From Abditibacteriaceae bacterium (GTDB taxonomy: Bacteria > Armatimonadota > Abditibacteriia > Abditibacteriales > Abditibacteriaceae), in assembly GCA_031425655.1 (NCBI GenBank), contig JANPJS010000242.1:1-12430 (forward strand): a DNA stretch of 12,430 bases, in the 5' to 3' direction. Below are positions 180-12,430 of the stretch, in pieces (the first letter of the stretch is position 1; each line of letters opens with the position of its first letter). The notes under the pieces were generated by a model. The model ran no database searches, was not told the DNA's origin, and was given only the letters and a program-made list of their open reading frames with translations. The translations under genes and the position numbers were made by a program.

Positions 180-234
180 GACGCCCTCTTCCAAACGGGG
201 TGTCTTCAGCCTCGACTGTTTGGAAGAGGGGGTC
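180..234. repeat. Inverted repeat / stem-loop upstream of the SDR gene
   Basis: CCCTCTTCCAAAC (184-196) pairs perfectly with GTTTGGAAGAGGG (218-230) around a 21-nt loop, and extends by GAC/GTC after one mismatch. Confidence 0.75.
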
Positions 235-308
235 AGCCTCGCTTTTTCGTGATGCCCCACAAAGCACGAAAATTGGCCGCGTGTTAAAACAAGTGGCGGA
301 GAAAACCT

Positions 309-1076
309 ATGAGACTCAAAGACAAAGTCGCTCTCATTACCGGAGCCAGCAGCGGCATCGGCAAAGGCATCGCCGAACGCTTCGCACGGGAAGGCGCGCA
401 CGTTGCGATTAATTACCGGCTGCGCGGCGATAATCAAGAAAAGGCCGAAGCTATCGTCGCAGACCTTGCTACAACAGGCATGGCCATCGCCGCCGATGTC
501 AGCCAACGCGCTGATGTCGAACGCATGATTGCCGAAGTCGTAGCCAAATTCGGGCGCCTCGATATTGTCGTCAATAACGCCGGCATCGAAATTAAAAAGC
601 CGTTTCTCGAAGTCGGCGACGATGAATGGAATAAAGTTATCGCCGTCAATCTTTATGGCTCGTTCGTAGTGGCGCAGGCCGGCGCGCGGCAAATGGTGAA
701 ACAGGGGCAGGGCGGCAAGCTGATTTTTATTTCGTCCACCCACGAGGACATTCCCTTTCCCGAATATACGGCTTATTGCGCCTCGAAAGGCGGCATTCGC
801 ATGATGATGCGCAACTTGTCAATGGAACTGGCGCCGCACAAAATCAACTGTAATAACATCGCGCCGGGCGCCATCGCCACGCCGATGAACCAATCGGTTT
901 TGGACGATCCGCAGGCCAGCAAAAACGCGATTTCTGAAATTCCGTGGGGCCGTTTCGGCACGCCCGATGAAGTCGCGTCGGTCGCCGTCTTTTTAGCCGG
1001 AGCCGACAGCGAATACGTGACCGGCAGCACTTATTACGTGGACGGTGGCCTCACGCAGCAAGTCACGCTGTATTGA
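309..1076 (+). CDS. Short-chain dehydrogenase/reductase, glucose 1-dehydrogenase-like
   Basis: 255 aa with TGASSGIG Rossmann motif, NNAG, catalytic YCASK, ISSTHEDIPFP and NIAPGAIATPMN typical of Gdh-type SDRs. GGAGA RBS at about 298-302. Confidence 0.88.
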   Translation: MRLKDKVALITGASSGIGKGIAERFAREGAHVAINYRLRGDNQEKAEAIVADLATTGMAIAADVSQRADVERMIAEVVAKFGRLDIVVNNAGIEIKKPFLEVGDDEWNKVIAVNLYGSFVVAQAGARQMVKQGQGGKLIFISSTHEDIPFPEYTAYCASKGGIRMMMRNLSMELAPHKINCNNIAPGAIATPMNQSVLDDPQASKNAISEIPWGRFGTPDEVASVAVFLAGADSEYVTGSTYYVDGGLTQQVTLY

Positions 1077-1081
1077 TTTCG

Positions 1082-1210
1082 ATTCACCACAAAGACACAA
1101 AGAATTCACAAAGATTTTTGAAATATTTCGTGAGTGGACGCCAATTTTTTTTCCCTTTTGTGAATTCTTTGTGTCTTCGTGTCGGGTGCCCTCTGGGCAG
1201 GATGGTGAAT
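1082..1210. repeat. Intergenic palindrome, family A (TTCACCACAAAGACAC...), right arm interrupted by a 23-nt insertion
   Basis: Left arm 1082-1112 pairs with 1157-1180 (1 mismatch) plus GGTGAAT 1204-1210. 1181-1203 has no partner. Related to 3902-4009. Confidence 0.9.
1182..1203 (-). repeat. Mini-hairpin insertion motif, copy 1 (ATCCTGCCCAGAGGGCACCCGA on - strand)
   Basis: Near-identical to 4625-4645 and 8063-8084. Absent from the partner arm and from the related palindrome at 3902-4009. Confidence 0.85.
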
Positions 1211-1222
1211 GACTGAAAAACT

Positions 1223-3901
1223 ATGAACCACGAAGAGCAACGCTTAAAAGCGGCGCGCGAAGACGGCGCGCCGTGGAAACAATGGGGGCCGTATCTCAGC
1301 GAGCGCGCGTGGGGCACGGTGCGTGAAGATTACAGCGCCGACGGCGCAGCGTGGACGTATTTTCCGCACGACCACGCACGTTCGCGCGCTTATCGCTGGA
1401 ACGAAGACGGCATAGCCGGTTTTTGCGACGACAATCAATATCTGTGCTTTGCTTTGGCGCTGTGGAACGGGCAGGACGCTATTCTCAAAGAGCGTTTTTT
1501 CGGCCTAACCGGAGTGGAAGGCAATCACGGCGAAGACATCAAAGAGTATTCCTATTTCCTCGACAGCACGCCGACGCACTCGTATTGCAAGTGCCTTTAT
1601 AAATATCCGCAGCGCGCTTTTCCTTACGGCCAACTGGTCGAAGAAAACGGGAGGAGGGGCAAAAACGATCCCGAATTCGAGTTGCTCGACACCGGAATTT
1701 TTGCCGAGAATCGCTATTTCGATGTCTTCGTGGAATATGCCAAAGCCGCGCCGCGCGACACTTTAATTCTCATCACCATTGTCAATCGCGGGCCGGAATC
1801 GGCGACTTTGCATTTGCTGCCGACACTGTGGTTTCGCAATAACTGGAGTTGGGACGGAATTCGCGCCAAGCCGCGTTTATCCGTGCCTGAACCTGACCCG
1901 ACAGCCGAAGCCCTGCATCGCGCGGTCATTGAGGCCAAACACAAAAACATCGGCACTTACTGGCTGCTTTGCCACGGCGAGGACGGCGTGCCCGAACTGC
2001 TCTTTACCGAAAACGAAACCAACACCCAACGTGTATTCGGCACCGCCAACGCCTCGCCTTTCGTCAAAGACGGCATCAACGATTGCGTCGTGAACAATCG
2101 CCGCGAGGCCGTTAATCCGGCGCAGGAAGGCACCAAAGCGGCGGCGCATTACGAGCTTGAATTGGCGCCCGGCGAAACGCGGACGGTGCGTTTGCGCCTG
2201 CTCGACGATATGCCGCAAACCAATGTGTTTGGCGCGCCTTTCGAGGCCATTTTCGCGCGCCGACGCGCCGAAGCCGACCAGTTTTATGCGAGCATCGCGC
2301 CCGAAGGCTTATCCGACGACGCGCGCTTGGTGCAGCGTCAGGCGTTGGCCGGGCTTTTGTGGAGCAAGCAGTTTTTTCAGTTCGATGTAGAGAAATGGCT
2401 GGCCGGCGACAAAGCCCAGCCGCAGCCGCCAAACCAACGCTGGCACGGTCGCAACCACGATTGGAAGCATTTCAACAGCCGCGATATTGTTTCGATGCCC
2501 GATACGTGGGAATATCCGTGGTTCGCGGCATGGGATTTGGCTTTTCATGCCATTCCTCTTGCTCTGGTAGACAGCGATTTCGCTAAAGATCAGCTTATTT
2601 TGCTGCTGCGCGAATGGTTCATGCACCCCAATGGGCAACTGCCGGCTTATGAATGGGAATTTGGCGACGTAAATCCGCCGGTTCATGCCTGGGCCGCGCT
2701 GCGTGTTTTTCGCATCGAAAAGCGCCAGCGCGGACAGGGCGACTATAAATTCTTAGAACGCGTTTTTCATAAATTGCTGCTGAATTTTACATGGTGGGTC
2801 AACCGAAAAGACGCCAAAGGCCACAACATTTTTCAAGGCGGCTTTTTGGGTTTGGACAACATCGGCCCATTCGACCGCAGCAAGCCGCTTGCCGATGGCG
2901 CGCAGTTAGATCAATCGGACGGCACCAGTTGGATGGCGATGTATTGCCTCAATTTGCTGGCAATGGCTTTGGAATTAGCCGCGCATAACGACACTTACGA
3001 AGATGTGGCCACCAAGTTTTTGGAGCATTTTTTCTACATCGCGCACGCCATGAACGACCGCGTTGCCGCCGGCAGCGACGACGGCGCCGATTTATGGGAT
3101 AACGAAGACGGTTTCTACTACGACGTTTTGCATCACTTTGACGGGCGGCGCGAATTTCTGAAAGTGCGCTCAATGGTCGGTCTGATTCCTCTTTTGGCTG
3201 TTGAAACACTCGATGCGGAGCTTCTGGAACGCTTGCCGGGTTTCCGTGAGCGTTTGGAATGGTTTCTCAAACATCATGCGAAAATCAGCGGAAACGCCGC
3301 CTCACTCACACGCACCGGGATGGCGGAGCGTCGCCTTTTTTCGGTTGTCAACGAAGAACGCCTGCGCTTGATTTTGCAGCGCGCTTTGGATGAAAACGAG
3401 TTTCTGTCGCCGTTCGGCTTGCGTTCGATGTCGCGCTTTCACTGCGAGCATCCGTATCGCTTGACTTTGGGCGGCCAAGCCTATGAAGTCAATTACCAAC
3501 CTGCCGAATCGCAAACCTCGCTCTTCGGCGGCAATTCCAATTGGCGCGGGCCGGTTTGGTTTCCTCTCAATTACCTTATTATTGAGGCGCTGCAAAAATT
3601 CGATCATTACTACGGCGCCGATTTCAAAATCGAATGTCCGACGGGCAGCGGGAATTGGATGACGTTGTGGGACGTTTCCACCGAATTATCGCAGCGCTTG
3701 ATTCGCTTGTTTACCAACGATGAACAAGGCCGTCGCGCAATTTTCGGCGGCGTTGAAACCTTGCAAAGCGACCCGAACTGGCACGATTACATTCCGTTTC
3801 ACGAGTATTTTCACGGCGACAACGGCGCCGGACTTGGCGCCTCGCACCAGACCGGCTGGACAGCGCTTGTCGCTAAATTGATTCAGCAAAGCGGCTTGTA
3901 A
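1223..3901 (+). CDS. GH63-like / MGH1-like glucosidase (six-hairpin glycoside hydrolase)
   Basis: 892 aa with family motifs [60 protein letters not shown] and [20 protein letters not shown]. Confidence 0.88.
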
Positions 3902-4009
3902 TTTTCACCACAAAGACACGAAGGCACAAAGAGTTTTTAAGGTTTTCAAAGCATAATGCTTAGAATTTCCTCTTATCTTCTTTGTGCCTTCGTGTCTTTG
4001 TGGTGAAAA
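3902..4009. repeat. Intergenic palindrome, family A, uninterrupted, between convergent genes (may also terminate transcription)
   Basis: Perfect 31-bp inverted repeat: TTTTCACCACAAAGACACGAAGGCACAAAGA (3902-3932) and 3979-4009, with a 46-nt AT-rich spacer. Confidence 0.95.
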
Positions 4010-4012
4010 AAA

Positions 4013-4564
4013 TCACCGTGCGTAGAGGCCGCATGGCGCCCAGCACGCGGCGGGCGCGCCGGTCATGGTGCCTTCCGGCAAAGTCAGCGCGATAACTTCG
4101 CCGTTGACGCGCAAACTCGCGCTTTGTGCGCTGGCTTCCAATCCCTGCTGCGCGAAGGGAAGCGGCCCCGGCGCGCGATTGACTTGTTCCAAATCGCCGA
4201 TTTGGGCCATGTGCGACTCGAAAACCATGTCGCCAATTGTCACGCGGGCGCCGACGGCGTGCGGCAACTCCGTCCAGACTTCGATTTTTGCGTCCAGAGC
4301 CGGCGCGTTTTCAAACGGCGTGCCCGCGAAAATATGCGGCCCGAAATAAGCGCCGACTTCGGGGTTTTCGGACACAAAACCGGCTAAAACCGGCGGCGCG
4401 GAAGAATCCGGCTGCCACAAAATCATGCCCGAAGGCGCCGAGCCAACCGGCGTATGCACCATGCGCGCGATGTGCAAAATCAAGTTCGGCGCTTCGCCGC
4501 CCGCCTGCGTGAGGCCAACTAAATCTACGCCGCCTTCCCAGGCCATCCAATTTTCAATTGCCAT
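4013..4564 (-). CDS. Hypothetical protein (183 aa)
   Basis: ATG start with GAGGAG RBS (complement of 4571-4576). Fills the space between two palindromes and has protein-like composition. Family not recognised. Confidence 0.8.
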   Translation of the reverse strand: MAIENWMAWEGGVDLVGLTQAGGEAPNLILHIARMVHTPVGSAPSGMILWQPDSSAPPVLAGFVSENPEVGAYFGPHIFAGTPFENAPALDAKIEVWTELPHAVGARVTIGDMVFESHMAQIGDLEQVNRAPGPLPFAQQGLEASAQSASLRVNGEVIALTLPEGTMTGAPAACWAPCGLYAR

Positions 4565-4610
4565 TGTAATCTCCTCGAATCCTGCTTTGAGCGCTTAAAC
4601 AAACGAGATT

Positions 4611-4713
4611 TTAACCACAGATCAATCCGCCCAGAGGGCACCCGATAGACACGGATTTTGGTTTTTTGATTCTGCCTTGTCATCTGTGTTTATCCGTGTT
4701 TATCAGTGGTTAA
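4611..4713. repeat. Intergenic palindrome, family B (TTAACCACAGAT...ACACGGAT), left arm interrupted by a 24-nt insertion
   Basis: Right arm has three tandem 10-mers ATCTGTGTTT ATCCGTGTTT ATCAGTGGTT (4682-4711). The left arm TTAACCACAGAT|AGACACGGAT matches it once 4623-4646 is removed. Confidence 0.85.
4625..4645 (+). repeat. Mini-hairpin insertion motif, copy 2 (ATCCGCCCAGAGGGCACCCGA)
   Basis: Differs from copy 1 by one deleted T. Absent from the partner arm. Confidence 0.85.
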
Positions 4714-4732
4714 TTTGGTTAAAAACTTTTAA

Positions 4733-5605
4733 TCAACCTTTCATCCCCGTTGTGGCGATGCCTTGAATGAAGCTCTTCTGCGCCAAAAAGAACAAAATGA
4801 TAATCGGCATGATGACTAAGAGCGAGGCCGCCATCAGCAGATTCCATTGTGTGCCGCCGTGCTGCGATTGAAAGGTTTGTAGGCCAAGCGCGAGCGTGTA
4901 TTGGCCGGGATGCTGAATATAAACCAGCGGCCCCAGAAAGTCGTTCCACGCGCCCATGAAAGTGAAAAGCGCCACTACAACCAAAGCCGAGCGCGACAAA
5001 GGCAAAATAATGTGCCGAAAAATGCCCCATTCCGAACAGCCGTCAACCGTTGCAGCTTCGGATAATTCGTCGGGGATGGTCATGAAGAATTGGCGCAGCA
5101 AAAAGATATTGAACGCCGAGCCAAACCACGCCGGCAGCCAAAGCGGTCGGAGCGTGCCGAGAAATTGCAGCGGCGTATTATCGCCCATCCAGCGAAAAAT
5201 CGTGAACAGCGATACCATCACGACCGGAAAGGGAATCATCATCGTGGCCAGCATCACGCCGAAAAGCAGGCCGCGCCCTTTGAAATCAATCTTGGCGAAG
5301 CCGTAAGCCACAATCGCGCTTGAAATCGTGGTGCCCAGCACGGTTAACAGCGCGACCATCAGCGTATTGTGGGCCAGCAGAGGAAAGTCGAGCTTCTTGT
5401 TTTCCAAAACCGCCGAATAGTTTTCCGGCACCATAGGACTCGGCCACCATTCCGGCGGCATGGTCATGGCATTTTCGAGCGTTTTCAGGCTTGTCGAAAG
5501 CATCCACACGAAGGGCAAAATAAAGCCGACACAGATGAGCAGCAGCGCGAGAGTGGCAGTCCATTTTTCGGCGCGTGAACGGCGAGAAAGAGAAGTTTTA
5601 GTCAT
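4733..5605 (-). CDS. Carbohydrate ABC transporter permease (MalG/CUT1 type)
   Basis: 290 aa with multiple hydrophobic helices, EAA loop LRQFFMTIPDELSEAATVDG, WNDFLGPL and C-terminal FIQGIATTGMKG. Confidence 0.95.
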   Translation of the reverse strand: MTKTSLSRRSRAEKWTATLALLLICVGFILPFVWMLSTSLKTLENAMTMPPEWWPSPMVPENYSAVLENKKLDFPLLAHNTLMVALLTVLGTTISSAIVAYGFAKIDFKGRGLLFGVMLATMMIPFPVVMVSLFTIFRWMGDNTPLQFLGTLRPLWLPAWFGSAFNIFLLRQFFMTIPDELSEAATVDGCSEWGIFRHIILPLSRSALVVVALFTFMGAWNDFLGPLVYIQHPGQYTLALGLQTFQSQHGGTQWNLLMAASLLVIMPIIILFFLAQKSFIQGIATTGMKG

Positions 5606-5606
5606 A

Positions 5607-6548
5607 TTACTTTCCCTGATAATGCACCCAGCGTTTGCTCGACCAGAACGCGAACGCGGTCAGCGCCAAAATGATGAGCAGTTGAATCCACGCCATCGCG
5701 CTGGCGTAGCCCATTTTCAAATAGCGAAAAGCGTTGTCGTAGAGATACATCGTGAAAAAGTAGGTCGCGCGGGCCGGATTGCCCTGCGTCATGATGTAGG
5801 GCACGGCGAACACTTGCAGCGTGCCGATAATGCCCATAATCAGATTGAAGAAAATCACCGGCGAAAGCATCGGGAGGGTGACGTGTCTCATGCGCGTCCA
5901 CGCGCCGGCGCCGTCTATTTCGGCGCTTTCCAGCAGTTCGCCGGGCACATCCTGCAATCCGGCCAGATAAATCACGACGGTGTGGCCCACGCCCCACAAG
6001 CTCATCAGCGCCAAAGCCGGCATGGCGTAAAGCGGGTCGGTGAGCCAACCAATCGGCGTGGCGATTTGCGGCAAATGCAAAATTCCCAGCACGAAGTTCA
6101 AGGCCGAGATCATCCAACTAAACGGCGCTTGATCCAATAAATTGTTGATTAAACCGAGCTTGGCGTTGAACAGCCACAGCCAGAGCATCGCCGAAGCGAC
6201 GGTGGGCACCAGTGACGGCAAAAAGATAATAGTGCGATAAGCGGCTTGTCCGGGCACTTTTTGATTGAGCAGCATCGCCAATCCCAGCGAGACCATCAAG
6301 CCCGCAGGCAGCGCCATCAGCGCATAAATCAGCGTGTTTTTCAGCGACTTGAGGAAAATCGGGTCGGCGGCGAGTTGGCGATAATTTTCAGTTCCGATGT
6401 AAGCCGGGCTTTGCAGCAGCGAGTAATCGCAAAAGCTGTAATACAGCGACAGCGCGACCGGCAAGAGCGTAAAAACCAAAAATCCGATGAGCCAGGGCGA
6501 GAGAAACGCCAAGCCTTTGCCCAGTTGTTGAGATTCTTTGCGTGTCAT
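5607..6548 (-). CDS. Carbohydrate ABC transporter permease (MalF/CUT1 type)
   Basis: 313 aa with FLSPWLIGF, EAA loop YLAGLQDVPGELLESAEIDGA and MGYASAMAW. Start overlaps the stop of the upstream gene (ATGA). Confidence 0.95.
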   Translation of the reverse strand: MTRKESQQLGKGLAFLSPWLIGFLVFTLLPVALSLYYSFCDYSLLQSPAYIGTENYRQLAADPIFLKSLKNTLIYALMALPAGLMVSLGLAMLLNQKVPGQAAYRTIIFLPSLVPTVASAMLWLWLFNAKLGLINNLLDQAPFSWMISALNFVLGILHLPQIATPIGWLTDPLYAMPALALMSLWGVGHTVVIYLAGLQDVPGELLESAEIDGAGAWTRMRHVTLPMLSPVIFFNLIMGIIGTLQVFAVPYIMTQGNPARATYFFTMYLYDNAFRYLKMGYASAMAWIQLLIILALTAFAFWSSKRWVHYQGK

Positions 6549-7999
6549 GCGCCACCTCCGTTAGCTGCGTTCTGCGAGTTGCGCGCACGCTGGCGAGCGC
6601 GATAATCGTCCCATTTCAGTTGCAATCGCGCCTGCGCTTCATCGAGTGCTTGTTTGGGTTCGGCTTCCAGCAAGTAAACGCGCTGCGCGACCACGCCCAG
6701 TTCTTCGCTGACTTCGGGCCAAATCGGAATTTTCGGCACACCGTGCGCGTGCGGACTGGCGGCTAATTTTTCAAACACGTCAATATACGGATTCGGATGC
6801 TCGTTGATGAACTTCGTGCTGACTTTCGCTAACGGCGAGTTTTTGCAGTGCAGCGAATTCAGCTTTTCCATCACGTCCTGGCGATTAACGTAAGCGATGA
6901 ATTCGAACGCTTCTTTTTTGTGTTTCGAGCCGCGTGGAATCGTGAGCGTATCGAAACCGGCATAAGTGGCATTTTCCAAATTCGCAACAGCGGAGGGAAA
7001 CGGTGCGGCACCCCATTGATAATTGGCTTGGCGCGCCTCATAAGGCAGCTTGCGCTCCTGCTCTTTCGACATTTTCCAGCGGTTCATGCTGGGTTTGAGG
7101 TCTTCGATATAATTCGCCATCCAGGGGCCTTGCTGTTCCATCGCAACGGTGCCCACTAAAAACGGGTTTTGCGCCGAGGCGAACGAACCAAAGCCGCTGC
7201 GAAATTCGGTCATGGAATCTTTGCCGAGCTTTTTGGAATAACTTTGAATCCACTTGTAGGCTTCGATCATTTTCGGGCTGTTGATGGTCAGTTTTTGCGT
7301 TTTTTCATCGAAAAGCCGTCCGCCAAACCAGTAAACGGTGTATTGCATAAACCAACCCGGCTCCATCGGCAGATAGCCGGAGATTTTAACTTGTTTGCGC
7401 CCTCTGACCGTTTCGTATTCGTCCAGCACTTTGGCGTAACGGTCAAGCTCATCAAGCGTGCGCGGCGCGCGATTGGCGTCCAGTCCCGCCGCGCGCAGTT
7501 CCTTCGCTTTTTCCACAAACAACGCCTTGTTGTAATGCAGCGCCGCAGCCGCCGGAGTGCTGATCAAGGCCCATAAACGGCCTTTGTAGCGGCAGGCGTC
7601 CCAATAAACCGGCTTGTAATAGCCTTCCCGAATGCCATGCGCTTTCGCCAGTTCGTCCAGCGGTTCGAGCGCGTTGATGGAAGCGAACTGCGTTACTTGC
7701 GGATCCCAAAGCCCGGCGATGTCGGGCGGCACACCGGCAGCGGTAGCAACTAAAGTTTTCTGATCCACGCTGCTCATCGAAAGATATTGGACGTAGATGC
7801 CTTTTTCTTTGCCGACCGTGTTGTTGAAATCGTCCACGATCTGCCCCATTTGCTCGGCTTCGTTGCCCGTCCACTTTTCCCAGTAATTGACGACAACGCG
7901 CCCTTCGTGCGAACCTTGTTCGCGCCGCCCGCCAAAAATCAGGAAAAAGACGGCCAAAACCGCTAAAATGGCCGAAAAGCCTTGTTTCAGAATTTGCAT
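6545..7999 (-). CDS. Carbohydrate ABC transporter substrate-binding protein (family 1)
   Basis: 484 aa with an N-terminal hydrophobic segment, AGVPPDIA, LHYNKALF, APRTLDEL and FLVGTVAMEQQGPW. Directly upstream of two CUT1 permeases. Confidence 0.92.
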   Translation of the reverse strand: MQILKQGFSAILAVLAVFFLIFGGRREQGSHEGRVVVNYWEKWTGNEAEQMGQIVDDFNNTVGKEKGIYVQYLSMSSVDQKTLVATAAGVPPDIAGLWDPQVTQFASINALEPLDELAKAHGIREGYYKPVYWDACRYKGRLWALISTPAAAALHYNKALFVEKAKELRAAGLDANRAPRTLDELDRYAKVLDEYETVRGRKQVKISGYLPMEPGWFMQYTVYWFGGRLFDEKTQKLTINSPKMIEAYKWIQSYSKKLGKDSMTEFRSGFGSFASAQNPFLVGTVAMEQQGPWMANYIEDLKPSMNRWKMSKEQERKLPYEARQANYQWGAAPFPSAVANLENATYAGFDTLTIPRGSKHKKEAFEFIAYVNRQDVMEKLNSLHCKNSPLAKVSTKFINEHPNPYIDVFEKLAASPHAHGVPKIPIWPEVSEELGVVAQRVYLLEAEPKQALDEAQARLQLKWDDYRARQRARNSQNAANGGGA

Positions 8000-8033
8000 T
8001 GCGCTTTTATCTTACTTTGCTTGAACATCTATG

Positions 8034-8172
8034 GCTTTTAATAGAACACGGCGGCTTCGCCGATCCTGCCCAGAGGGCGCCCGAAACGACACGGATTAAC
8101 ACGGTTTTTATTTGATCTGTGGAAATCTGCGCCGTTTCCGTGTCGGCGAAGCCGCCGTGTTCTATTAAAAGC
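8034..8172. repeat. Intergenic palindrome, family C (TTTTAATRGAACACGG-hairpin-ACACGG), left arm interrupted
   Basis: Perfect 30-bp inverted repeat 8034-8063 / 8143-8172 with imperfect pairing inward. Related to 12347-12430. Confidence 0.93.
8063..8084 (+). repeat. Mini-hairpin insertion motif, copy 3 (ATCCTGCCCAGAGGGCGCCCGA)
   Basis: 21/22 identical to copy 1. Replaces CACG, which is present in the partner arm and in the 12347 relative. Confidence 0.85.
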
Positions 8173-8175
8173 ACA

Positions 8176-8246
8176 TCACTTTGCCCAATCCGGCGCGTTC
8201 TTCAAGCGATAAAGCATTTCGCCGGCTTTGGCGATGTAAAGGATGC
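8176..8246 (-). pseudogene. Remnant 3' end of the larA-like gene (diverged direct repeat of 10130-10200)
   Basis: 62/71 nt identical to 10130-10200. Encodes ILYIAKAGEMLYRLKNAPDWAK* versus ILYVAKAGEMLYRLKDAPEWAR* in the intact gene. Confidence 0.9.
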
Positions 8247-8289
8247 TTTGCACTTTCATCTTGCCCCTTGATGAGGAGCGCTTTGGAAA

Positions 8290-9186
8290 TTAATGAAGCC
8301 AGCTCAAATCTCGACTGATAAGTAATTCGCTCATTTCGGCATGATGCGTGTTCTTCATGGCTACGGCTTGAGTTTCAAAGCCAAACTTTTCCGCTAATTC
8401 CAAAACGCCTTGTGCGTTATCGTAAGTCATTAAAAAGTCGCCTTCAAGTGCTGCGGCTATTCTAAATAATTCTTCGTGGTCGAGTTGGTTGTGTGTGTAA
8501 AGGCGTGTGCCGGCTCGCTTTCCTGCTCCTGACGCGGTGTAGGGCGGGTCAATGAAGAAAACGGCATCGGCGCGATTGGCGTTATCTCGAAGCACCTGCA
8601 TTCCATCGCCTTCGATAAATTGGATGCTGTCGCGCCAGCTCACAATATCAAGAATGCGCTTGCTCAATGTTTCGGGATACCAACGCGATTTGATGCCTTT
8701 CCCGTTCTCCCCGTGCTTCAATATGCCGGCGCCCGGCGCTAAAATGCCGCCGTGATTGATGCGGTTTTTCAACAGCGTGCGAAATGCCATCTCCCGCAAG
8801 TTCGGTTCGGGCTTGCTCAAGACTTGCTGCACGCTTTCCGGTGTCATATCGAAATTGACAATGCTGTCGGCAAGCCATTCTCCGCCGCCCGGTTGCTGCA
8901 AAATAACGCGCCAAACGGCGGCGACTTGCTCGTCGCGTTCAACCATCGTGACCCATTCGGCGCGGCATTCAAAAGCGGTAGTCAAACTGGCGATTCCGCC
9001 GCCGCCGAACGGTTCGATGAATTCGCGCGGCTTAGCGGGCTGGCTTTCGAGCCATAGTCGCAAGCGTGGAACAAGCCACGTTTTTCCGCCCGGATAGCGA
9101 AAAGGACTGCGCTGCGGCACGCTCGCCACATTGACGATGCCGATTGCAGCCGTAACCGTTTCTTCACCGAATAAAGTGGATTGCAT
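8290..9186 (-). CDS. DNA amino-methyltransferase, Dam/D12 alpha class (probable N6-adenine)
   Basis: 298 aa with RSPFRYPGGKT and FIEPFGGGG (motifs X/I) N-terminal to FIDPPY (motif IV). ATG overlaps the endonuclease stop (TAATG). Confidence 0.92.
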   Translation of the reverse strand: MQSTLFGEETVTAAIGIVNVASVPQRSPFRYPGGKTWLVPRLRLWLESQPAKPREFIEPFGGGGIASLTTAFECRAEWVTMVERDEQVAAVWRVILQQPGGGEWLADSIVNFDMTPESVQQVLSKPEPNLREMAFRTLLKNRINHGGILAPGAGILKHGENGKGIKSRWYPETLSKRILDIVSWRDSIQFIEGDGMQVLRDNANRADAVFFIDPPYTASGAGKRAGTRLYTHNQLDHEELFRIAAALEGDFLMTYDNAQGVLELAEKFGFETQAVAMKNTHHAEMSELLISRDLSWLH

Positions 9187-10106
9187 TAAAAGCTCTCCGC
9201 ATCGGTTTGTTCTTCTACCAAACCGAGTGGTGGCTCGACATCCGGTGATAGCTCCGATGCCGGCGGTGTGCCCATGATCTTGCCGCGCTTAATTCTTTCT
9301 TCCAACCCTTTTATGAATACGCTGACTTCGCCGGCATCGGCTATGGTGATGGCGCTCAGCGCATCCTGAAAGCTTGTATAGTGCGTTTTGGCTGCTTCCA
9401 ACTTATAGCGATTTTGGGCCGTGTCCAAATTCAGGTCGTAGGTCAGCCACGCTATTTCTGCGCTCGCCTCGTCAACTTCGGGCAACACCGGCAATTGCTC
9501 GAAAAAGGGAGTATGAACCACAACCGCCATTTTCTTGCCCCATGTGTTAAGAATGCCGCCTTTGAAAATAAGCTGCGGCGCAAGGCGTTTACGCGACGAG
9601 GATAAATAATCGGGTTTCGGATAGCCAAGCGACGGCCATTCCATAGTTGCACGAGCCGCAGGGTCGCTCATATAGTGCTTAAAAGGCTTCTTCACATTGC
9701 CAGAAACGTAAACGGCTTGCACTTCCAACGCGCCAAAATCAACGATTTGGTCATCGGCGCCCAGCGCGACCAAAACCATGTCAATGTTGCCCGCTGATTT
9801 TCCATTTCTGTCGTTTAATCGAACTTCGGTAAGTGCTAAATAGCGTGTATTTGGTGAGAAAAAGAAGCGGGCCGCATCAGTGACAATCAACATATCCTGA
9901 CGGAATCGAACCGGGCAAGTGATGGCCGGCGCGTCTTTGTGAGATACGGTGCAAACGCCTAATGGGTCGGTTTTGCTGTCTTTGGTGCAGTGCAAACCGG
10001 ACGAATTATGAAACGGGCACAATCTACCCGCGCGGTGTCTGGTTGCTTCCGGCGACATATCCGTAACGCTGTAGCCAAAAACTTCGACCAGAGGATGTTT
10101 GGGCAT
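9186..10106 (-). CDS. Type II restriction endonuclease, NotI family
   Basis: 306 aa with N-terminal EVFG and four cysteines (C30, C40, C52, C64; CPF..C.K..GVC..CPVRF) like the NotI metal-binding domain. GNIDMVLV..ALEVQAVY is a PD-(D/E)xK-type core with ExQ, followed by the SSRKRLAPQLIFKG motif. Coupled to a methyltransferase. Confidence 0.85.
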   Translation of the reverse strand: MPKHPLVEVFGYSVTDMSPEATRHRAGRLCPFHNSSGLHCTKDSKTDPLGVCTVSHKDAPAITCPVRFRQDMLIVTDAARFFFSPNTRYLALTEVRLNDRNGKSAGNIDMVLVALGADDQIVDFGALEVQAVYVSGNVKKPFKHYMSDPAARATMEWPSLGYPKPDYLSSSRKRLAPQLIFKGGILNTWGKKMAVVVHTPFFEQLPVLPEVDEASAEIAWLTYDLNLDTAQNRYKLEAAKTHYTSFQDALSAITIADAGEVSVFIKGLEERIKRGKIMGTPPASELSPDVEPPLGLVEEQTDAESF

Positions 10107-10129
10107 AAAACTAAGGATACAGCTTTAGC

Positions 10130-11407
10130 TCATCTGGCCCACTCCGGCGCGTCTTTCAAGCGATAAAGCATTTCACCGGCTTTGGCGACGTAAAGAATGC
10201 CTTCATCTTCGCGGTTTTGGAAATCCGCCGGGTTAATCGTGGCCGGGTCGCGGTAGCCCATGTTGATGGCGGCGCAGCGTCCGGGCGAAATTTGCGTGGC
10301 GAGCGTCACTTTGACGCGCGGTTTTTCGATTCCGTCCTCGAAAGTGCCAATGCCGCGAACGTGCGTCGAATGCGCTAAAACGCCCCACGGATGATCTTTA
10401 AACTTGTCCCACTGCTTGAGGAAATAATCGCGCACATGATAACCGATGGCCTCGATTTCCGCGCTGTGCGTAACCGAAACCTCGCTGATATGCGGCGCAT
10501 AAATAATCAATTCGCCGCCGTCGGCCAAAACCGGCTCTAATTTATACATACACTTGCCGCCCGTCCACAAATCTTCATACATCGTCGGGCAGCACGCCAA
10601 AACGGTGTGAAACGGGCGCTCTTTGTAAGTAATGTGCAATTTGTCCGAGAGCTTGGCGGCTTGCTGCCACGCGGCTTCGGGCGTGCCGGCGTAAAGACCG
10701 GCAAGCTGATTCTGATGAACGGTCATGCAAAACGCGGCGCGCGGAATCGGCACCATTTGCGCGGCTTCGTCCACGACGGCGCGCACCGGAGTCCATTTGG
10801 CGCCGATGATTTTCGGATTGCTGATAACCGCGCCGAGCCAGTGAAAGAAATTGAGAATTTCCGCGCCGCCGATGCCAGGAAACAAATATTTGTTGCCGCC
10901 CGAAAAGCCGACGACTTCGTGCGGGAAAACCGGGCCTAAAATCAACAGCAAATCATAATCGAAGATTTTGCGGTTGATTTGCACGCGCACGTCCATCTCG
11001 AACAAGCCGTTCGACAATTCGCCGATGCGCGAAGCCGGAATCGTTCCGATGTCGGCTAATTCCGCCGGGTTATCCCATTCGTGATTGAAAACGCGCACCC
11101 CGCCGAATTTGCTGGCGCGTTCTTCGGCTGAAATCTCCAAACGATGATTAATCGCTTCGTCGCTCATCGGCTGATGTGTGCCCAGCGCGATCATCACATC
11201 AAGCTGCGCGACATCGCGCCCGATGAGTTCGTAAATCGTCTTGAATAGCAAGCCGACGGGCGCGGTGCGCGTGCCATCGGGGATAATCAGCAGCACTTTT
11301 TTGCCGCGTAGTTCGAGCGGACACAGAAAATCGGCGGCGATGCGCTGCACTTCGGCATCACTGAGAAAACGGTCGGTGGAACCGGCGCCAACGGTGGGGA
11401 AATTCAT
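10130..11407 (-). CDS. LarA-family (lactate racemase domain) 2-hydroxyacid racemase/epimerase
   Basis: Motifs IIPDGTRT, IALGTH, PHEVVGFSGGNKYLFPG, FFH and WTGGK correspond to LarA active-site and nickel-pincer-binding residues. Start placed at ATG 11407 (MNFPT); the ORF is open back to TTG 11461, so the start is uncertain. Confidence 0.85.
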   Translation of the reverse strand: MNFPTVGAGSTDRFLSDAEVQRIAADFLCPLELRGKKVLLIIPDGTRTAPVGLLFKTIYELIGRDVAQLDVMIALGTHQPMSDEAINHRLEISAEERASKFGGVRVFNHEWDNPAELADIGTIPASRIGELSNGLFEMDVRVQINRKIFDYDLLLILGPVFPHEVVGFSGGNKYLFPGIGGAEILNFFHWLGAVISNPKIIGAKWTPVRAVVDEAAQMVPIPRAAFCMTVHQNQLAGLYAGTPEAAWQQAAKLSDKLHITYKERPFHTVLACCPTMYEDLWTGGKCMYKLEPVLADGGELIIYAPHISEVSVTHSAEIEAIGYHVRDYFLKQWDKFKDHPWGVLAHSTHVRGIGTFEDGIEKPRVKVTLATQISPGRCAAINMGYRDPATINPADFQNREDEGILYVAKAGEMLYRLKDAPEWAR

Positions 11408-12346: not shown

Positions 12347-12430
12347 TTTTAATGGAACACGGAGGCTTCGCCTACACGGAAACGACACAGATTTACACGG
12401 TTTTTCTATATTGAACAGCGAAAATCTGTG
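12347..12430. repeat. Intergenic palindrome, family C, uninterrupted left arm, truncated by window end
   Basis: TTTTAATGGAACACGGAGGCTTCGCCTACACGGAAACGACACAGATTTACACGG matches the 8034 element without the insertion. The right arm appears to begin at ATCTGTG (12424-12430). Confidence 0.85.

Follow-up and report, generated by a model that had tools for sequence, protein, structure and literature searches.

An 18-nucleotide hairpin element placed with nearly fixed geometry in the repeats and genes of Abditibacteriaceae

We describe a micro-element with an 18-nt core that resembles the small dispersed repeats (SDRs) of cyanobacteria, together with the rule by which its junctions are built, which is the new part of this description. 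Three copies lie in a 12,430-nt stretch of DNA, hereafter the window, from an Abditibacteriaceae bacterium (GenBank assembly GCA_031425655.1, contig JANPJS010000242.1); the window is contig C242 of a 5.98-Mb, 97% complete genome that we designate G000. The element is a non-autonomous hairpin placed with nearly fixed geometry in repeats, genes and phages, and we regard it as very probably a mobile unit. In what follows, G001, G002 and G003 denote congeners of G000 and G062 a Chloroflexia genome; X stands for a retained target base, N for a variable extra base, and L and R for the left and right flanks.

The core, its host repeats and its empty sites

The repeated unit is an 18-nt core, CYGCCCARAGGGCRCCCG, present in 253 exact copies in G000, where each of 30 shuffled motifs has 0 copies; reversed patterns give 0-1 copies per genome. 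The 16-mer of a preliminary description of the window returns 203 exact and 308 one-mismatch copies genome-wide. Copies follow the pattern CY-GCCC-ARA-GGGC-R-CCCG, and their conservation stops sharply at both ends of the core. The GCCC-AGA-GGGC stem-loop first noticed in the window is found in the core as a GCCC/GGGC stem with a 3-nt loop, and the isolated core folds no better than shuffled sequences. The foot pair is T-G in 137 of the 253 cores, T-A in 86, C-A in 29 and C-G in 1, and loop and stem variants are unlinked at the level of sites (Fisher p 1.0). No Rfam family matches the core at the gathering score. Two ideas were discarded: origin from a tRNA 3′ end, with no match among 68 predicted tRNA and tmRNA genes, and a larger autonomous form, for which a half-motif search gave only an IS110 insertion sequence (IS) and a few truncations. 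Several copies in G062 (L281, L289, L237, L330) have a G in place of the first right-flank base, which suggests a 3′ variant with an extra G.

The three cores of the window are found at positions 1183-1200 (minus strand), 4627-4644 (plus strand) and 8066-8083 (plus strand), each breaking one arm of a different long palindrome, as had been reported. The first occupies the right arm of the family A palindrome (1083-1209, fold z -5.6), with X = C at 1201 and N = T at 1202, and the host bases AAAG are lost; its partner arm (1083-1112) is empty. The second is a CC-variant core in the left arm of the family B palindrome (4611-4714, fold z -2.8), with its partner arm at 4684-4714; its junction is short, a lone T at 4626, and 19 nt stand in place of 5, for a net gain of 14. 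The third breaks the left arm of the family C palindrome (8034-8172, fold z -10.2), with N = T at 8064, X = C at 8065 and the loss of ACGG, and its partner arm spans 8119-8172. In each case the partner arm supplies the pre-insertion sequence, C-AAAG in family A and C-ACGG in families B and C, and repeat comparison bears out the empty relatives of family A at 3902-4009 and of family C at 12347-12430 (plus strand), the latter reaching the contig end. The copies are real, but the length of 21-22 nt first assigned to them is not that of the core, which has 18 nt; it takes in one host base at each end. The GACAC said to follow every copy is part of the host repeats and follows only 24 of the 253 copies.

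The core is not an adapter or assembly artefact, because it occurs in independent assemblies of other species and phyla. A contig of read run X1, which may be the run from which the window derives, spans the second window copy with zero differences, and a skip of 14-15 nt at the three sites was seen in none of the contig joints listed, beside which there are 18 further joints. Across the family, the core is found in 20 of the 26 other genomes (1-162 copies), and in the rest of the phylum in 4 of 34 (1-6 copies). Three Chloroflexota metagenome-assembled genomes are rich in it (81-95 copies), and G062 has 41 copies in the 2.3 of 5.2 Mb examined. A sample of 300 further genomes from the phylum of G062 yielded it in only 6. 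A Coraliomargarita genome of the Verrucomicrobiota (4 copies) and 12 viral stretches also carry it. Records named as Abditibacteriaceae contain the motif within the host repeats seen in G000. The viral contigs L111, L118, L121 and L112 have 2-3 copies per 4-21 kb, much denser than bacterial genomes, a density biased upward by their having been found through the motif.

Copies also occur in unique sequence, where empty orthologues can be compared directly. In the tRNA array of G000 contig C61 (L194:579-739), the tRNA-Arg(TCG) gene carries the element at the border of D-stem and anticodon stem; the orthologue in G001 is empty, reads CAGCA, and differs by +15. Another gene of this array holds a heptamer palindrome. 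The portal gene of a phage carries the element in L118 but not in L121, an in-frame difference of +15, and a second phage site, represented by 15 records, is filled in 3, empty in 11 and unrelated in 1. Four of these empty orthologues match the filled L351 in both flanks, with GGCAG exchanged for TG plus the core. A coding copy on C139 shows +15 relative to three congeners, at a junction that is not clean, and a Calx-beta-like repeat (named by eye) carries a copy common to G000 and G001; some insertions therefore predate the species split. The element also sits inside its own loop, with the same geometry, at 20 loci, some of them doubly nested; these come from other genomes and metagenomes, 18 of the 20 through an ATG-forced search, and none is in G000. 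The preliminary description had found no copy in coding sequence, a claim made for the window that does not extend to coding and tRNA genes elsewhere, and palindrome arms are not the only location of the element.

Host repeats multiply filled sites, with 22 copies at one site type in G000 and all 10 copies of genome G179 in one host repeat. Such hitch-hiking is real, and it is what speaks for regarding the motif as a sub-family variant of host repeats, spread by amplification and gene conversion and not mobile itself. We find this very hard to credit, as it is already contradicted by the unique-sequence insertions with empty orthologues, and also by the presence of 150 site types in unrelated repeat families, by self-nesting and by the lack of flanking homology between sites. 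Hairpin-forming repeats hold 271 of 307 copies, against 1481 of 5000 intergenic C positions; the control is lenient, with coding DNA scoring 1276 of 5000. This enrichment fits targeting and better survival in repeats alike, and the two cannot be separated. Within palindromes, the reported inward polarity is borne out as a bias and not as a strict rule, the partner arm lying downstream of 131 copies and upstream of 32 (54 and 19 site types, respectively), with no partner found for 148 of 313 copies. The C content of 5′ arms, considered as a cause of this polarity, does not explain it (C/G ratio of 0.79 over 739 empty palindromes, in aggregate), and no replication-strand bias was seen in G000, where the skew signal is weak (98:75, 55:46 and 36:36 at three thresholds). 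On the 2.2-Mb contig C8 of G003, a post hoc hand count gave unpaired copies at 18:4 on one strand.

Junction geometry and the extra base

We looked for empty paralogues of 302 copies, which fall into 150 site types; 73 of these types had at least two and the other 77 too few. Over these 73 site types, the net gain is +15 at 60, +14 at 12 and +13 at 1. Formally, the change can be written L-X-nnnn-R → L-N-X-core-R: four target bases disappear, X stays in place, and N is added 5′ of it. The 3′ junction is exact, 4 nt past X, and in the +14 form either N or X is absent. The insertion proposed in the preliminary description thus stands as regards a small mobile unit, unrelated host repeats and empty alleles, but target bases are replaced, which is not plain insertion. 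The net gain of 15 preserves the reading frame, and the core has no stop codon in any frame.

At the +15 sites of G000, X is C in 59 of 60, and 57 of those 59 also have C directly before the core; over all 302 copies, the preceding base is C in 257. In other genomes, the pre-core base follows the first target base, with TC at 13 of 13 C sites and TG at 18 of 20 G sites, and it equals X in 34 of 43 pooled rows. The pre-core C is therefore better read, from these alignments, as a retained target base than as a base of the element. In the three Chloroflexota genomes the pre-core base is less often C, non-C forms making up 42, 40 and 48 of about 95, 86 and 81 copies. X can be C, G or A, and is rarely T. 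A stricter formulation, in which 20 nt take the place of a 5-nt target that always starts with C (58 of 58), was dropped: it came from a set pre-filtered for a CCT or CC prefix, and it fails in Chloroflexota, where G sites and probably A sites are common. Apart from X, targets show no conservation from -12 to +16, and DNA folds of 57 site types revealed no shared local hairpin or fold.

The extra base is T at 38 of 81 site types, C at 24, A at 19 and G at 0, which on the opposite strand reads A 38, G 24, T 19 and C 0. Untemplated addition and the bypass of abasic sites follow the order A>G>T>C. N depends on the neighbouring target base, with 15 of the 19 A following C, and has no clear site-level link to internal variants of the core; it therefore looks as if N were made at each insertion.

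Proposed mechanisms of placement

One candidate for the origin of the element is an IS that lies inside some copies. IS621-like IS110 loci were found at L190, L191 and L511 (G000 contigs C101 and C70), at L520-L534 (G016) and at L514 (G005), with guides and target changing together in G005. The IS lies inside the core at 10 left-end and 8 right-end contig breaks of G000, and all 10 of the 10 copies of its relative in G016 sit in the element. A Transposase_20 match is present at C101, only the C-terminal domain being assembled in G000, and the G016 copy L520 has both DEDD and Transposase_20 domains. The left-end guides GGGTGCCCT and CCCAGAG are shared by G000, G003 and G016; GGGTGCCCT equals the left target, with a CT core, and CCCAGAG is complementary to the right target, so that the putative left-end RNA would match the layout of a bridge RNA. 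These locations, and the match of the guides to the core, are what commends the view that an IS110 bridge recombinase is the source of the element, either making it or leaving it behind as a footprint, to which we give very little credence. The guides cover only 14 of the 18 nt, the relative in G005 has other guides and another target, an IS end was matched in 6 of 41 genomes and in none of the six g6 genomes with the core, and IS110 recombination is described as scarless at a CT core (PMC11208160). On this comparison, we read the IS110 as a likely user of the element and not as its mover. In four copies, on G000 contigs C119, C143, C244 and C302, the loop is longer by AG exactly where the IS110 inserts; these may be excision footprints. 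At about 230-390 (minus strand) of contig C138, that loop position of a copy is occupied by another short element, one with inverted ends.

The preliminary description had further proposed a trans-acting enzyme of the nick-and-prime, reverse transcriptase (RT) or HUH type. We likewise infer an enzyme in trans, but RVT_1 was not found in G000 and Y1/HUH proteins do not track the element; a longer master copy beside an RT, HUH/RAYT or nuclease gene was searched for and not found. Profiling of the 27 family genomes detected RVT_1 (PF00078) in 21, PDDEXK_3 in 24, DUF559 in 20, and Y1_Tnp in 25 whatever the element count (with subclades of REP-associated tyrosine transposases, RAYTs, pooled), including 31 matches in the element-free G021 and six in G000. 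G007, G021 and G023 have PDDEXK_3 and lack the core; in G017 and G019 the core is present without any DUF559 match. In this profiling, none of these families, nor PF01896, tracks the element. A BLAST comparison across phyla, of G000 proteins up to 420 aa with 2.3 of the 5.2 Mb of G062 (32 of 53 hits scanned with Pfam), gave only repeat-associated small nucleases and housekeeping proteins, and 43 phage open reading frames (ORFs) gave no mover candidate. Most family genomes carry an RT open frame of about 500 aa (L128-L137), which was not found in G000, G001 or G002.

The exact 3′ junction, the variable 5′ junction and the target deletion favour target-primed copying with a template jump, by a polymerase other than a canonical RVT_1 RT; we hold this tentatively, at somewhat less than an even chance. 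When the second nick lies upstream, target-primed insertion is described as giving a precise 3′ end, an imprecise 5′ end and a loss of target bases (PMC2881922). In our case, an enzyme acting in trans would nick both strands about 5 nt apart, the top strand 5′ of X. The bottom strand would then be extended from its 3′ end across a hairpin template, either single-stranded DNA or RNA from any copy, and the extension would jump back to X, add one untemplated base and be joined to the left flank by end-joining. Filled sites are subsequently multiplied by the host repeats around them.

Several results weigh against this model or against the junction rule on which it draws. N lies one base inside the target, a position that ordinary target-primed insertion would give it only between element and target, and an extra jump is needed. 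Matches to RVT_1 number 0 in G000, G001 and G002, with a broken fragment in G003, in a search that divergent or phage-borne RTs would escape; PF01896 has no match over the cut-off in any of the 27 family genomes, with a model that may miss bacterial LigD/PrimPol; and there is no unique master copy among the 15 non-repeat copies of 339 scored. Regarding the rule, 9 of the 43 pooled rows do not have a pre-core base equal to X, most TG rows come from a search that required ATG, and several sites in G062 lose 6 nt or fit poorly. The sense of the element relative to flanking genes is unbiased (65 and 60). At the level of copies, finally, there is a weak association between N and the internal variants (p 0.002 and 0.02), which probably arises through amplification by host repeats.

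The same scar could be left by strand transfer without synthesis, in which a pre-cut single-stranded 18-mer is joined by two transesterifications, through a HUH/RAYT-like or other transesterase, and a branch or abasic-like link at X is replicated as X plus one uninstructed base. We consider this main rival unlikely, though less so than the accounts that involve IS110, host-repeat variants or repair. The absence of an RT from the richest genomes and the six Y1_Tnp matches of G000 point in its direction, as do the enrichment in hairpin repeats under its lenient control, the restriction of X to C, G or A with T rare, and the A>G>T order, which fits lesion bypass as well. The hairpin of the core, with its short fixed feet, also resembles HUH substrates. 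IS200/IS605-type insertion, however, is not known to lose target bases and needs a target motif of 4-5 nt, which is at odds with the loss of bases and the conservation of X alone; targets have no common local fold, and the broad occurrence of Y1_Tnp, including its abundance in G021, is a further mismatch.

A fixed loss of four bases also recalls the stagger of type II topoisomerases, which is 4 nt. On that basis, breaks in repeats could be made by such a topoisomerase or by the repeats' own small nucleases (GxxExxY/PDDEXK_3, DUF559 or four-helix-bundle cassettes) and patched by host end-joining with a stable, abundant hairpin oligonucleotide. PDDEXK_3, IVP, DUF559 and Uma2 proteins are among the best matches between G000 and the 2.3 Mb of G062 compared (63, 57, 51 and 47% identity, respectively), and a PDDEXK_3 gene (L192, G000 C126:3841-4302), which we take to be of the GxxExxY type, is flanked by family B inverted repeats; there are five such paralogues. 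Capture of this kind is nevertheless improbable, since the geometry is the same in a tRNA, in phage genes and in the element's own loop, neither PDDEXK_3 nor DUF559 tracks the element, and N 5′ of X is left unexplained.

Beyond the particular route, the scar may record a DNA-insertion chemistry that has not been described, in which an enzyme that is neither an RT nor a DDE, serine, tyrosine or standard HUH recombinase attaches an 18-nt hairpin to nearly any DNA, its target specificity being one base, perhaps via a branch or abasic-like link. We entertain this with more doubt than belief. If it holds, it would supply SDRs, which rank among the smallest mobile DNA known, with a working mechanism, and would amount to a natural writer of short sequences.

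Other features of the window complete the picture of its repeats and genes. Positions 1-143 belong to another host palindrome family, which lacks the element here and carries it at 8-11 other places in the genome. A 183-aa ORF at 4013-4564 (minus strand) has no Pfam match and about 70% DNA identity in all three congeners. Genes for a NotI-family endonuclease and a D12 adenine methylase, at 8176-10203, are bracketed by a 74-nt, 86% identical direct repeat that corresponds to the 3′ end of a lactate-racemase-like gene.

Relation to known systems

How elements of about 20 nt move has been an open question since SDRs were described in 2008. The family described here offers a sharp signature for addressing it: the loss is fixed at 4 nt, one target base is retained, and the added base follows an A>G>T pattern. 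Its members occur in phages and several phyla, and the +15 change keeps reading frames, making the element a natural reporter. Parasitism here is stacked three deep, a bridge-RNA IS110 being directed at a micro-element that itself sits in palindromic repeats. Should the mover be found, it would be a compact enzyme able to write short sequences while needing hardly any homology to the target. The literature searched contains no prior description of the motif or its junction; Elhai et al. 2008 and its supplements lie outside that literature and may bear on novelty.

The passenger IS resembles IS621-type IS110 (PMC11208160) in its long left end, its CT core, a left guide equal to the left target, a right guide complementary to the right target, and a dispersed repeat as target. 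It differs in that its predicted target, from sequence, is the 18-nt element and not a repetitive extragenic palindromic (REP) sequence. The element itself is unlike miniature inverted-repeat transposable elements, as its ends are CY and CCCG, with no terminal inverted repeats, and target bases are lost, not duplicated. With the REP/REPIN-RAYT system (PMC3116915) it shares the nature of a short, non-autonomous hairpin DNA, probably moved in trans, and E. coli REP sequences are likewise targeted by an IS621-like IS110; in contrast, the core moves as a singlet into repeats and genes, with no RAYT-adjacent master seen, and with a target deletion and an extra base. Inverted doublets of the REP kind are not prevalent: among 327 copies, only 45 pairs of neighbours lie within 300 nt of each other, and 22 of these pairs face inward. 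Non-long-terminal-repeat retrotransposons and short interspersed nuclear elements (PMC2881922) have in common with the element an exact 3′ junction, a variable 5′ junction, an untemplated base and a target-site deletion. The core, however, has only 18 nt and no poly(A), the richest genomes have no RVT_1, and its extra base is set one position into the target.

The closest analogy remains that already drawn in the preliminary description, with the SDRs of Nostoc-type cyanobacteria. SDRs reportedly turn up scattered over many kinds of surroundings, heptamer arrays and small mobile repeats being frequent ones, with SDR1 and SDR4 nested in their own copies. The class is said to comprise SDR1-8 of the Nostocaceae, of 21-27 nt (Elhai et al. 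2008, Genome Res 18:1484). Papers that cite SDRs (PMC4390886, PMC5861425, PMC2884548, PMC3116915) confine them to the Nostocaceae, place SDR5 only in HIP1, and name no moving enzyme. The present core shares with SDRs, to the extent that these sources describe them, a size of about 20 nt, a hairpin, precise insertion, no named enzyme, dispersal (150 site types, with heptamer arrays and small mobile repeats among the hosts) and self-nesting, at the 20 loci outside G000. It departs from them in its length, 18 nt or 19-20 nt with the junction, and in its lineage, being found in Armatimonadota, Chloroflexota, Verrucomicrobiota and phages. From SDRs as described in these citing papers, it further differs in having neither a target consensus nor a fixed target such as HIP1, in replacing 4 bases, and in placing an extra base 5′ of a retained X.

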